2,923 bases of DNA from the IMG/VR virus record IMGVR_UViG_2703718821_000008; one strand, written 5' to 3'. The notes under the pieces were generated by a model that ran no database searches, was not told the origin of the DNA, and worked only from the letters and a program-made list of their open reading frames with translations. Below, in pieces: positions 494 through 2,738 of this stretch (the first letter of the stretch is position 1; the number at the start of each line of letters is the position of its first letter). A program made the position numbers and the translations under genes. Origin of the DNA: a virus (taxonomy: Duplodnaviria; Heunggongvirae; Uroviricota; Caudoviricetes).

Positions 494-507
494 GTAACAA
501 TAGTTAC
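494..507. promoter_or_regulatory. Operator-like palindrome O1 GTAACAATAGTTAC
   Basis: Perfect 5-bp inverted arms GTAAC/GTTAC with a 4-bp spacer. It overlaps the spacer and -10 of the putative cro-like promoter and is immediately followed by the ATG at 508. Confidence 0.6.
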
Positions 508-541
508 ATGATAATGTCAACCATAGTGACATCCATTGGTA

Positions 542-555
542 GTAACATTGGTTAC
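542..555. promoter_or_regulatory. Operator-like palindrome O2 GTAACATTGGTTAC
   Basis: Same GTAAC-N4-GTTAC architecture as O1. It is immediately followed by the ATG at 556 and contains a -10-like TAACAT (543..548) about 7 nt upstream of that ATG, consistent with a leaderless repressor transcript. Confidence 0.6.
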
Positions 556-1230
556 ATGAACACTACTATTAGCGAACGCATCCGAAAGCGTCGAAGAGAC
601 ATAGGTCTAACCCAACAGCAGGTTGCAAAGGCTATCGGCGTCACCCGTGTATCCGTAACAAAGTGGGAAAATGGTTCAACAAAACCGGACGGTGAGAATT
701 TACATCTGCTGTCAAAACTGTTTTCCAAATCACCTGAATGGATTCTTTATGGGAAAGATATTCACGATCAAGTCGATGATTTGCGATTGAATCAACTCCC
801 CTACCTTAGTGACAACATCACCCGGTTGCCCGTTTTAACGTGGGAACAGGCTGGTTACTGGGATATGAGCTACCCAGTAACCGAAATCCCTGGTATTAAG
901 AATTGGGTTGATGTCATGACAAAAACATCTGAAAACTCTTTTTTATTGCGCGTTGAGGGAGATTCAATGACAAACTCTAACGGTTTGCCAACGATCCCCG
1001 ACGGCTCCACGGTGTTGATCACTCCATGCTCTGGCAACATTGGGGAGATGGCGGGAAAGATTGTTCTAATCCAACTAGAAGGAATACCAACTGTAACACT
1101 GAAAAAAGTCGCAATTGATGGCCCAAACATCTACCTACTGTCATTAAATCCGCTTTACAAGCCTATAGAACTCAATGGTCGCTACACCATTAAAGGTAAA
1201 GTCTCACAAATCCATCAATACTTAGATTGA
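556..1230 (+). CDS. CI-type prophage repressor: N-terminal XRE-family HTH plus C-terminal S24 (LexA-like) autopeptidase domain; 224 aa (240 aa if started at 508)
   Basis: Track ORF 508..1230. The HTH is LTQQQVAKAIGVTRVSVTKWENG (about 607..675). An Ala-Gly candidate cleavage site sits in the linker (EQAGYW; GCT GGT at 850..855). The S24 catalytic serine motif is EGDSM (Ser codon 964..966) and the catalytic lysine is in VTLKKV. Start 556 is preferred over 508 because it gives a normal-length N-terminus before the HTH and leaves a 91-bp divergent control region; neither ATG has a Shine-Dalgarno. Confidence 0.85.
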   Translation: MNTTISERIRKRRRDIGLTQQQVAKAIGVTRVSVTKWENGSTKPDGENLHLLSKLFSKSPEWILYGKDIHDQVDDLRLNQLPYLSDNITRLPVLTWEQAGYWDMSYPVTEIPGIKNWVDVMTKTSENSFLLRVEGDSMTNSNGLPTIPDGSTVLITPCSGNIGEMAGKIVLIQLEGIPTVTLKKVAIDGPNIYLLSLNPLYKPIELNGRYTIKGKVSQIHQYLD

Positions 1231-1291: not shown

Positions 1292-1320
1292 TTGACTCAA
1301 CGAGTAACTTCTGTTACCTT
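1292..1320 (+). promoter_or_regulatory. PL-like promoter with embedded operator O3 (GTAACTTCTGTTAC, 1304..1317)
   Basis: TTGACT (1292..1297), 17-bp spacer, TACCTT (1315..1320). A third exact GTAAC-N4-GTTAC palindrome overlaps the spacer and -10, with the same geometry as O1 at the cro-like promoter. A GTAAC half-site lies at 1273..1277. The -10 is a poor match to TATAAT, so the promoter call is tentative. Confidence 0.5.
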
Positions 1321-1496: not shown

Positions 1497-1649
1497 ATGG
1501 ATACGCTCAATCTTGGCAACAACGAATCTCTGGTATGCGGCGTGTTTCCCAACCAGGACGGCACGTTTACCGCGATGACGTATACCAGAAGCAAAACGTT
1601 TAAAACTGAAGCTGGCGCGCGTCGCTGGTTAACCAGAAACACTGACTGA
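1497..1649 (+). CDS. ydfA: Small prophage protein, YdfA/YdaF-like (50 aa)
   Basis: ATG 1497 with GAGG Shine-Dalgarno (1488..1491) 5 nt upstream; translation MDTLNLGNNESLVCGVFPNQDGTFTAMTYTRSKTFKTEAGARRWLTRNTD; stop TGA at 1647..1649. It is not in the supplied ORF track (probably below the length cutoff). It resembles my recollection of the small YdfA (Qin) / YdaF (Rac) proteins that follow the repressor gene; unverified. Confidence 0.65.
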   Translation: MDTLNLGNNESLVCGVFPNQDGTFTAMTYTRSKTFKTEAGARRWLTRNTD

Positions 1650-1660
1650 TGAGGTTGACG

Positions 1661-2035
1661 ATGGAATTTAAAGATTTACCACTACCATTCCAGGAAATGG
1701 CTGCGAATATAGTTCGTTCTCAACTGGCCACTCTTGACCTGAGTACCGTAGAAAAAGAAACCATCGATAATATATCCGGTAACGTACGCCGAGCCTTTAT
1801 CGGGCTGTACGAAGAGAAGCAGCTCTCTGATAACCAGGATTTACATGAAAAATACTTTCTGGAATTAATGGACATCATTAATAAAGGATTTGGCTTGTTA
1901 ATGAAAAAGAAAGGGATTCGAATAGCTCCCCTTGAAAATCATTTTACAGCAAGCAGTATTAACTCCTGTGATTTAAAGCATCACACATCCGATGGGAAAG
2001 TTGAATCAAACAACAAAATATCAATTAATCATTAA
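1661..2035 (+). CDS. Hypothetical protein, 124 aa (128 aa if started at ATG 1649, which overlaps the upstream stop as TGATG)
   Basis: Track ORF 1649..2035. ATG 1661 has a GAGG Shine-Dalgarno (1651..1654) 6 nt upstream; ATG 1649 has none but overlaps the stop of the preceding small ORF. The protein is soluble-looking and acidic/lysine-rich, with no motif I recognise. The last ~40 codons are AT-rich and low-complexity (ending KISINH). Confidence 0.6.
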   Translation: MEFKDLPLPFQEMAANIVRSQLATLDLSTVEKETIDNISGNVRRAFIGLYEEKQLSDNQDLHEKYFLELMDIINKGFGLLMKKKGIRIAPLENHFTASSINSCDLKHHTSDGKVESNNKISINH

Positions 2036-2114
2036 TTTATTCACGGGTGAGGTAGAGCGCGTGCGCCGGACACGGATAAGAATCCGGCACTGACAGTTTA
2101 CTGAAAGAACATAT

Positions 2115-2130
2115 CCCTGAAAAGTCAGGG
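2115..2130 (+). other. Perfect hairpin CCCTGA-AAAG-TCAGGG in the non-coding block
   Basis: 6-bp perfect stem with 4-nt loop. Other hairpins nearby: GCCGGA/TCCGGC (2065..2070 / 2083..2088), AGCGCACG/CGTGCGCT (2142..2149 / 2187..2194), CCGCG/CGCGG (2210..2214 / 2221..2225). Confidence 0.7.
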
Positions 2131-2261
2131 CATAACACGAAAGCGCACGGCGAGAATATAAGGCTTGTCGTTAAATTTAATTCGATCGTGCGCTTCCGGT
2201 TGTGGCAATCCGCGAAATGGCGCGGCGGTAAGTATGGCTGGGGCTTCCTCCATTGCTCCAG

Positions 2262-2281
2262 AAAATGCACCAAAATGCACC
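2262..2281 (+). repeat. Perfect tandem duplication AAAATGCACC x2
   Basis: AAAATGCACC at 2262..2271 is repeated exactly at 2272..2281, inside the non-coding block. Confidence 0.9.
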
Positions 2282-2343
2282 GGGTTGTCAGGTTGACCAT
2301 GCGCCTGAGTGACAACACCGCCACAACAACCTCTGTTATCACT

Positions 2344-2382
2344 TTTCTGGTGATTCGGCGGAAATGGATATCCGCCATTTTT
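2344..2382 (+). ncRNA. dicF: Candidate DicF-like small RNA ending in an intrinsic terminator
   Basis: The sequence TTTCTGGTGATTCGGCGGAAATGGATATCCGCCATTTTT resembles my recollection of the 5' end (UUUCUGGUGA...) and the GGCGG/CCGCC-U-run terminator of E. coli DicF. It sits between the 124-aa ORF and the dicB-like gene, as dicF does in Qin. The downstream sequence AAAGTGTATTTTGTGATGCGGTGAATGCGG also resembles the K-12 dicF-dicB spacer from memory. The exact 5' end is unknown and the candidate is shorter than the 53-nt K-12 DicF. Confidence 0.45.
2357..2382 (+). terminator. Rho-independent terminator (3' end of the DicF-like element)
   Basis: Stem GGCGGA (2357..2362) pairs with TCCGCC (2371..2376), 8-nt loop AATGGATA, followed by ATTTTT (2377..2382). 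Confidence 0.6.
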
Positions 2383-2549: not shown

Positions 2550-2738
2550 ATGGAAACGTCACTACCAAACGTTAATACGTCTGAAGGGTGTTTTAATATT
2601 GGTATTCTGCTCAGTAACCGGGAGTTTACTGAAGATGCCATCAGGATGAGAAAATATGAGCCTTATCTTCTCAATGATAATTCCATTCTCTCCAGAATTG
2701 CCCTTATTAAACTTGGCATTTTCGGAGGGCAGCAGTGA
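2550..2738 (+). CDS. dicB: DicB-family cell-division inhibitor (62 aa)
   Basis: ATG 2550 with GAGGA Shine-Dalgarno (2538..2542) 7 nt upstream. Translation METSLPNVNTSEGCFNIGILLSNREFTEDAIRMRKYEPYLLNDNSILSRIALIKLGIFGGQQ. The N-terminal half (LPNVNTSEGCF.IG...SN..FTEDAI..RK) matches my recollection of E. coli DicB, which is also 62 aa; the C-terminal half diverges. Confidence 0.8.
   Translation: METSLPNVNTSEGCFNIGILLSNREFTEDAIRMRKYEPYLLNDNSILSRIALIKLGIFGGQQ

Follow-up and report, generated by a model that had tools for sequence, protein, structure and literature searches.

The dicBF-type operon is found in most Escherichia coli genomes, often in several copies in EHEC, and encodes the potent effectors DicF, DicB, YdfD and Kil. 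In E. coli K-12, DicA represses dicBp, from which ydfABC-dicF(-dicB-ydfD) is transcribed as a polycistronic RNA (PMC10448788, PMC5069750), and DicF is processed from this RNA (PMC5069750, PMC10448788). DicB, Kil/KilR and YdfD each exert their effect by binding a single host protein: MinC for DicB, FtsZ for Kil/KilR and IspG for YdfD (PMC5069750, PMC8835842). By inhibiting inner-membrane receptor proteins, DicB also provides protection from phages (PMC6832061). The remaining members of the K-12 Qin operon, YdfA, YdfB and YdfC, are small, lie close to the promoter under the control of the same repressor, and precede dicF and dicB (PMC5069750).

Such promoter-proximal small ORFs make up the uncharacterised remainder of dicBF-type operons. 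A comparable situation exists in phage lambda, whose early-left genes (ral, cIII, ea10, kil, gam) are likewise non-essential small ORFs that are mosaic between phages.

Here we analyze a 2,923-nt stretch of DNA from IMG/VR record IMGVR_UViG_2703718821_000008 (hereafter the window) and one of its genes, which encodes a 124-aa protein. The gene is a real, common and already catalogued prophage accessory gene, an ordinary hypothetical one with no unusual anatomy. We find that it occupies a slot that holds at least three independent cassettes, and that its N-terminal hairpin is the conserved part of a modular protein family.

The 124-aa gene lies in a dicBF-type early-left operon

The window comes from an E. 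coli lambdoid prophage of the Qin/Rac-like type and spans its immunity and early-left region; a prophage adjoining yccA in strain JNE170426 is 99.9% identical to the window. Its features are the following:

249 to about 470, minus strand: cro-like gene
508-1230, plus strand: CI/LexA-type prophage repressor with HTH_3 and Peptidase_S24 domains (Pfam PF01381, 1.6e-15; PF00717, 1.5e-18; RefSeq name 'LexA family protein')
1238-1254: hairpin 3' of the repressor gene, with a terminator-like score on the minus strand only; a T run then follows on the plus strand
1292-1320, plus strand: putative early-left (dicBp/pL-like) promoter, TTGACT-17-TACCTT, with hexamers read from the sequence
1304-1317: presumed operator GTAACTTCTGTTAC, overlapping the putative early-left promoter
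1497-1649, plus strand: ydfA-like gene (DUF1391, 50 aa), first gene of the operon (PF07151, 4.1e-29; aligns with K-12 ydfA)
1651-1654, plus strand: Shine-Dalgarno GAGG of the 124-aa gene, at the same spacing after ydfA and after ydfC
1661-2035, plus strand: the 124-aa gene with its stop codon (ORF list; PGAP; PHROG 6937; 227 homologues; in-frame dN/dS)
1661-1819, plus strand: residues 1-53, N-terminal helical-hairpin domain (AF2 prediction; common to phrog_1363, 2151 and 9419)
1820-1924, plus strand: residues 54-88, linker and third, amphipathic helix, ending in KKKGIRI (AF2 prediction; dN/dS 0.23; hydrophobic moment 0.49)
1925-2032, plus strand: residues 89-124, polar tail, predicted disordered, ending in ISINH (pLDDT below 50; in-frame dN/dS 0.34)
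2036-2342, plus strand: conserved untranslated stretch from the gene to dicF, homologous to the K-12 ydfC-dicF spacer (Qin alignment)
2343-2381, plus strand: short dicF-like allele and intrinsic terminator hairpin (2357-2376 plus T run; K-12 dicF alignment, terminator scan, allele census)
2550-2738, plus strand: dicB, cell-division inhibitor (PF05358, 6.9e-33)
2735 to the window end: ydfD/DUF1482

The first-pass annotation had placed the ORF between ydfA-like and dicF-like elements, and this layout, with ydfA (DUF1391) on one side and the dicF/dicB region on the other, confirms it. The 124-aa gene starts 11 nt after ydfA on the same strand, with a GAGG Shine-Dalgarno of its own. A consensus scan returned no promoter-like site ahead of it, and the dicF hairpin at 2357-2376 was the only plus-strand terminator-like site that the terminator scan found downstream. 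The gene order in the window and in 90+ loci is that of a dicBF-type early operon, with the gene on the operon strand between the repressor-controlled promoter plus ydfA and dicF/dicB. Its position, after a repressor, an early-left promoter and ydfA and before recombination genes, also follows the lambda order. The analogy with lambda is one of position only, and no lambda record was among the matches listed by tblastn.

Three perfect GTAAC-N4-GTTAC palindromes occur in the window (494-507, 542-555 and 1304-1317), where 0.1 would be expected by chance. Two lie in the cro/repressor intergenic region and the third on the early-left promoter; all three presumably serve the CI/S24 repressor as operators.

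The order repressor, ydfA, ORF, dicF, dicB or kilR, ydfD, exonuclease is retained under different immunity modules. In the loci we numbered L085 to L096, the ydfA-ORF-dicB operon stands behind at least four of them, namely CI-S24, DicA-like, RacR and a 123-132-aa HTH protein. Three loci (L089, L093 and L095) carry a PaaA2/ParE-type toxin-antitoxin pair between the repressor and ydfA, and L095 also carries a truncated dicB and a Rha-family regulator. Downstream of the 124-aa gene, kilR/kil replaces or accompanies dicB in some loci (L089, 3875-4099; L095, 5048-5269), and the division-inhibitor slot would therefore be a swappable cassette too.

The open frame is under frame-specific selection from a conserved start codon

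The plus-strand frame is open from 1649 to 2035, with the stop codon at 2033-2035. When the 372 coding bases are shuffled as mononucleotides, the frame remains open in only 0.0115% of cases. RefSeq (PGAP) likewise annotates a 375-nt gene. The predicted start is the conserved ATG at 1661 (MEFKDL...), which gives 124 aa, because GAGG stands six bases upstream and the same arrangement is found whether the gene follows ydfA or ydfC. GAGG-N6-ATG is thus kept in two upstream contexts that are otherwise unrelated. In the ydfC context, an in-frame TAA lies 18 bases upstream of this ATG. We also considered the ATG at 1649, a purely mechanical candidate that overlaps the ydfA stop codon (TGATG), lacks a Shine-Dalgarno and is absent in the ydfC context. 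Altogether, the kept GAGG at 1651-1654, the shuffles and the conserved start bear out the initial reading of a real, stop-free ORF with a good Shine-Dalgarno.

We then measured selection on the gene. We gathered 39 distinct alleles from IMG/VR, GTDB, RefSeq and assembly contigs and computed Nei-Gojobori dN/dS on 12 diverged ones. The pooled in-frame values, which derive from pairwise comparisons that are not phylogenetically independent, were 0.41 for codons 1-53, 0.23 for codons 54-88 and 0.34 from codon 89 to the end. Two alleles whose helix 1 is recombinant raise the pooled 0.41, and most pairs formed with the window allele show a pN/pS of 0.05-0.18 over codons 1-53. In five disjoint sequence pairs, pN/pS was 0.29, 0.27 and 0.46 for the N-domain, middle and tail. 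Over the same columns, the other two frames gave a dN/dS of 0.65-1.31 and contained many stop codons. These comparisons point to purifying selection at the amino-acid level that is specific to the plus-strand reading frame, and there is very little doubt that 1661-2035 is a genuine protein-coding gene. The minus-strand ORFs at 1720-1878 and 2037-2378 were rejected as mechanical only, selection being specific to the plus frame; the second, which overlies the conserved dicF precursor region, is unlikely to be a gene.

Base composition changes within the gene. GC content is 0.43 in codons 1-53, 0.31 in codons 54-88, the most AT-rich part, and 0.34 in codons 89-124, compared with about 0.50 in ydfA. 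The AT-richness that the first-pass annotation had reported for the C-terminal part is real, but it sets in near nt 1820 (about codon 54), at the border of the conserved N-domain, and not from about 1900.

The C-terminal tail is likely translated

The first-pass annotation had also described only the N-terminal two-thirds as protein-like and suggested that the C-terminal ~40 aa could be a readthrough extension. The first point agrees with the AF2 model, whose structured part ends near residue 85-90. We therefore weighed the possibility that the functional protein ends near residue 88 and that the last 36 codons are non-functional readthrough or non-coding. Several features of the tail would fit this: it is predicted to be disordered and has the highest amino-acid divergence of the protein, and the tail of one sequence taken alone stays open in 7% of shuffles. 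Shorter forms also exist. In the 109- and 106-aa forms, other DNA with an antisense ORF takes the place of everything past about codon 104 (roughly the final 20 residues), and an 88-aa form ending in GIRI has 33 members.

Nevertheless, the comparison of alleles argues for a coding tail. No stop codon interrupts it in 12 diverged variants, compared with 13 and 77 stops in the other two frames, and a 6-nt insertion, giving 126-aa forms, is in frame. The 124- and 126-aa alleles always end in ISINH followed by TAA. The dN/dS of the tail is 0.34 in frame versus 0.65 and 1.05 in the other frames, and that of the last 17 codons 0.38 versus 0.84-0.87. In addition, the PHROG 6937 profile spans all 124 positions. 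Similarity between loci stops directly after the TAA, not near codon 88, and is followed by at least four unrelated classes of downstream sequence; because homology breaks there, the whole ORF appears to be the unit of recombination. The kept frame, the frame-specific selection and a recombination unit that ends at the stop contradict a readthrough origin, which we regard as quite improbable. The tail is in all likelihood translated, while being the least constrained and partly dispensable part of the protein.

In some loci, 'hypothetical' antisense ORFs of 73-148 aa begin just past the 3' end of the gene or overlap it (minus strand; L085, 3365-3586; L096, 3299-3736; L093, 3454-3900). The loci with such ORFs carry other downstream modules than the window.

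The slot between ydfA and dicF holds independent cassettes

In K-12 Qin, the slot between ydfA and dicF holds ydfB and ydfC, and the first-pass annotation had raised the speculative possibility that the ORF was an intact or fused version of these two genes. The shared slot is in favor of this proposal, as is a distant relative, P0160, in which a YdfC-like domain is fused in frame to the N-domain. At the sequence level, however, the 124-aa protein resembles neither product. BLASTP gave no alignment to K-12 YdfB (phrog_2061) at E <= 100, and its best alignment to YdfC (phrog_1744) had E = 2.1 over 7 residues; the PHROGs of both differ from that of the 124-aa protein. Moreover, all three genes occur together in one operon. 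Among the fetched loci, the gene is directly preceded by ydfA in 70, by ydfA-ydfB-ydfC in 24 and by ydfC in 2, so that an intact ydfC lies directly upstream in 26; a further O157:H7 RefSeq record also has ydfA-ydfB-ydfC followed by the 124-aa gene. The absence of similarity and this co-occurrence rule out the proposal, which we consider effectively refuted.

P0160 itself is 149 aa long and joins the YdfC-like domain to the MEFKDLP N-domain with V replacing M1. It may be a genuine fusion or else result from a gene call that runs through a missing stop, and provides weak Rosetta-stone evidence for a link with YdfC.

The flanks of the window align to Qin on both sides and the ORF region does not: the window has this gene without ydfB and ydfC, and K-12 the reverse. 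When K-12 Qin is compared with a gene-carrying locus, the absence of the gene is a clean, gene-sized indel, with homology stopping 3 nt before the ATG and resuming 7 nt past the stop codon. The 124-aa gene is almost certainly independent of ydfB and ydfC. Since the sequences are unrelated, the genes co-occur and the K-12 indel is clean, the slot between ydfA and dicF holds at least three cassettes (ydfB, ydfC and the 124-aa gene) that combine freely. The 124-aa gene thus shares the size, position and operon of YdfA, YdfB and YdfC but has no sequence similarity to them; it coexists with their genes as an independent fourth, which K-12 lacks. K-12 is consequently a natural null background, making the gene a clean target for cheap expression and pull-down work.

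We also examined how widespread the gene is. The 375-nt sequence is present at >=80% coverage in 701 of 5,426 complete E. coli genomes, and the exact protein on 151 contigs. Homologues form 227 clusters at 90% identity, from Escherichia and a few Salmonella; a scan of genome contigs added E. albertii alone. All named database matches are 'hypothetical' or 'uncharacterized'. A tblastn search of deposited phage genomes returned matches to the N-domain only and no full-length copy, and the 124-aa form has therefore been seen so far only in prophages and IMG/VR contigs.

A conserved N-terminal hairpin is joined to variable C-termini

The family of the 124-aa gene is PHROG 6937 (function unknown), which matches over its full length (E = 2e-77, 258 bits, residues 1-124 on profile positions 1-124 of 124); it is already catalogued, without a Pfam or NCBIfam model. 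The N-terminal 53-63 aa also match phrog_1363, phrog_2151 and phrog_9419. The first-pass annotation had recognized no motif, and our searches agree with it: NCBIfam gave no match, Pfam none at E <= 1 apart from VLPT, which is spurious (15.5 bits, where the cut-off is 27), and PADLOC-DB defense models no family at E <= 0.1, leaving this uncharacterized PHROG as the sole match. A profile search against PDB sequences gave no match (best E = 0.35), and fold searches returned only generic helical matches and one family member, a 52-aa protein of phi191 in BFVD with a TM of 0.85 on the target. We found no paper on the gene in the literature on ydfA/B/C, DUF1391, the PHROG identifiers or the WP accession.

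The protein is soluble and slightly acidic (pI 5.9), with no hydrophobic segment. From a deep alignment, AF2 predicts a confident helical hairpin (pLDDT 86-90) formed by helices 8-24 and 32-56, a third helix spanning 62-83 (pLDDT about 60-73) and disorder from residue 85/91 to 124 (pLDDT below 50). We considered two roles suggested by these elements and rejected both. Membrane targeting by helix 3 (GFGLLMKKKGIRI) does not fit its only moderate hydrophobic moment (0.49) and lack of a hydrophobic stretch. A lambda N-type antiterminator does not fit the N-terminus MEFKDLPLPFQEMAANIV, which has no arginine cluster, nor the acidic N-domain (pI 4.65).

The N-domain, of about 53 aa, has the signature MEFKDLPxxxQxxAA...F..LY, in which M1, L6, P7, Q11, A14 and F46 are invariant and D5, A15, L49 and Y50 near-invariant. 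A profile search of 1.84 billion representative proteins recovered only 59 clusters, most covering residues 1 to about 55. These relatives have the hairpin and the invariant residues, are conserved down to about 25-30% identity across genera, and range from 60 to 208 aa in total, with C-termini of wholly different sequence and length; several consist of the hairpin alone. Scans of the long relatives with Pfam, NCBIfam and PADLOC returned nothing informative. In phages PPompW and Evi, N-domain relatives occupy the same slot, after ydfC and before dicB or kil, and in Stx2a phages (genus Oslovirus) they are found in the early region. Judged from these sequences, the N-domain appears to define a small family restricted to enterobacterial prophages, with many unrelated C-terminal extensions or none. 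This family is a modest experimental lead.

This conservation also bears on whether the protein sequence matters at all. The ORF could be a translated spacer, protecting against Rho polarity, or a part of the DicF precursor, its product being incidental. Indeed, the slot accepts quite different inserts (ydfB, ydfC, the 124-aa gene and combinations of them) ahead of the same dicF/dicB, and DicF is processed from polycistronic RNA (PMC5069750, PMC10448788). A spacer would not, however, be expected to show amino-acid-level purifying selection specific to the plus frame, nor an N-domain kept across genera and in other contexts such as the Stx2a phage early region, and K-12 makes DicF without the 124-aa gene. 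We consider a spacer role very improbable, and the preferred reading remains that of a gene selected for its protein.

Proposed regulation and mode of action

The layout of the window and the regulation of the K-12 operon suggest when the protein would be made. Because the gene lies downstream of an operator-covered promoter facing a CI/S24 repressor, it is expected to be silent in the lysogen, with the repressor bound at the 1304 operator, and to be expressed on derepression. Derepression, probably through SOS-driven self-cleavage of the repressor, would then yield the 124-aa protein together with DicF, DicB and YdfD.

The 124-aa protein shares its operon, size class and expected timing of expression with DicB, Kil/KilR and YdfD but has no sequence or profile similarity to them: the Pfam DicB and KilR models (PF05358, PF27398) match neighboring genes only and not the 124-aa protein. 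We propose that it may act stoichiometrically, since it is small and helical, carries no catalytic, DNA-binding or membrane motif, and joins interchangeable C-termini to an N-domain that is conserved. In this model, the hairpin would provide the docking surface for a conserved partner from the host or a phage, and the variable C-terminal part would adjust the interaction or diversify it. That the protein binds a host or phage protein in the manner of DicB, Kil and YdfD is a tentative proposal, drawn by analogy, to which we give somewhat less than even chances. For the statement as a whole, that of an optional cassette in a dicBF-type early-left operon whose product would be made on derepression and act as a binder, we lean narrowly in favor.

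The family structure would allow a bolder variant of the binder proposal. The MEFKDLP hairpin might serve as a portable module that docks on a single conserved host target (a protein of division, the envelope or immunity, for instance), with prophages shuffling C-terminal extensions such as helix 3 plus tail onto the hairpin. If true, this would reveal an unrecognized family of modular host-takeover or anti-defense effectors beside DicF, DicB and Kil; we hold it to be unlikely. That the first seven codons are so strictly conserved could be due in part to a constraint on translation initiation or recombination and not to a docking surface, and the mosaic C-termini could be recombination scars without functional meaning.

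A binder could also be aimed at other phages or at host immunity and not at host physiology, making the protein a defense, superinfection-exclusion or anti-defense factor. The equivalent region of lambda holds Ral, Gam and SieB. The gene is, moreover, a presence/absence cassette in an accessory region, with a fast-evolving C-terminal part, and DicB, from the same operon, protects from phages through its action on inner-membrane receptor proteins (PMC6832061). On the other side, PADLOC gave no match, and dN/dS is never clearly above 1, so that there is no arms-race signature. With a repressed promoter ahead and no promoter-like site of its own in the consensus scan, the gene should also be silent in the lysogen. 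Altogether, a role in defense or anti-defense appears improbable, and we retain the broader reading of a candidate binder of a host or phage protein.

The dicF region carries a short allele and a structured leader

The dicF-like element at 2343-2381 is a short allele, in which the 5' UUUCUGGUGA and the terminator hairpin are kept and about 19 central nt of K-12 DicF are missing; the Rfam DicF model gave no match to it at E <= 1. Among the fetched loci, 13 carry this short class, about 57 the canonical allele and 4 a third one. Further downstream, 2375-2582 matches Rfam STnc100 below threshold (E = 4.4e-5; 34.2 bits, the gathering score being 47). This STnc100-like stretch spans the conserved leader from dicF to the dicB start and is nearly identical to K-12. 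Finally, the untranslated stretch at 2036-2400 has a predicted fold of -123.5 kcal/mol (z = -2.9 versus shuffled sequence), and this modeled fold is consistent with a structured DicF precursor processed by RNase III/E, as in K-12.
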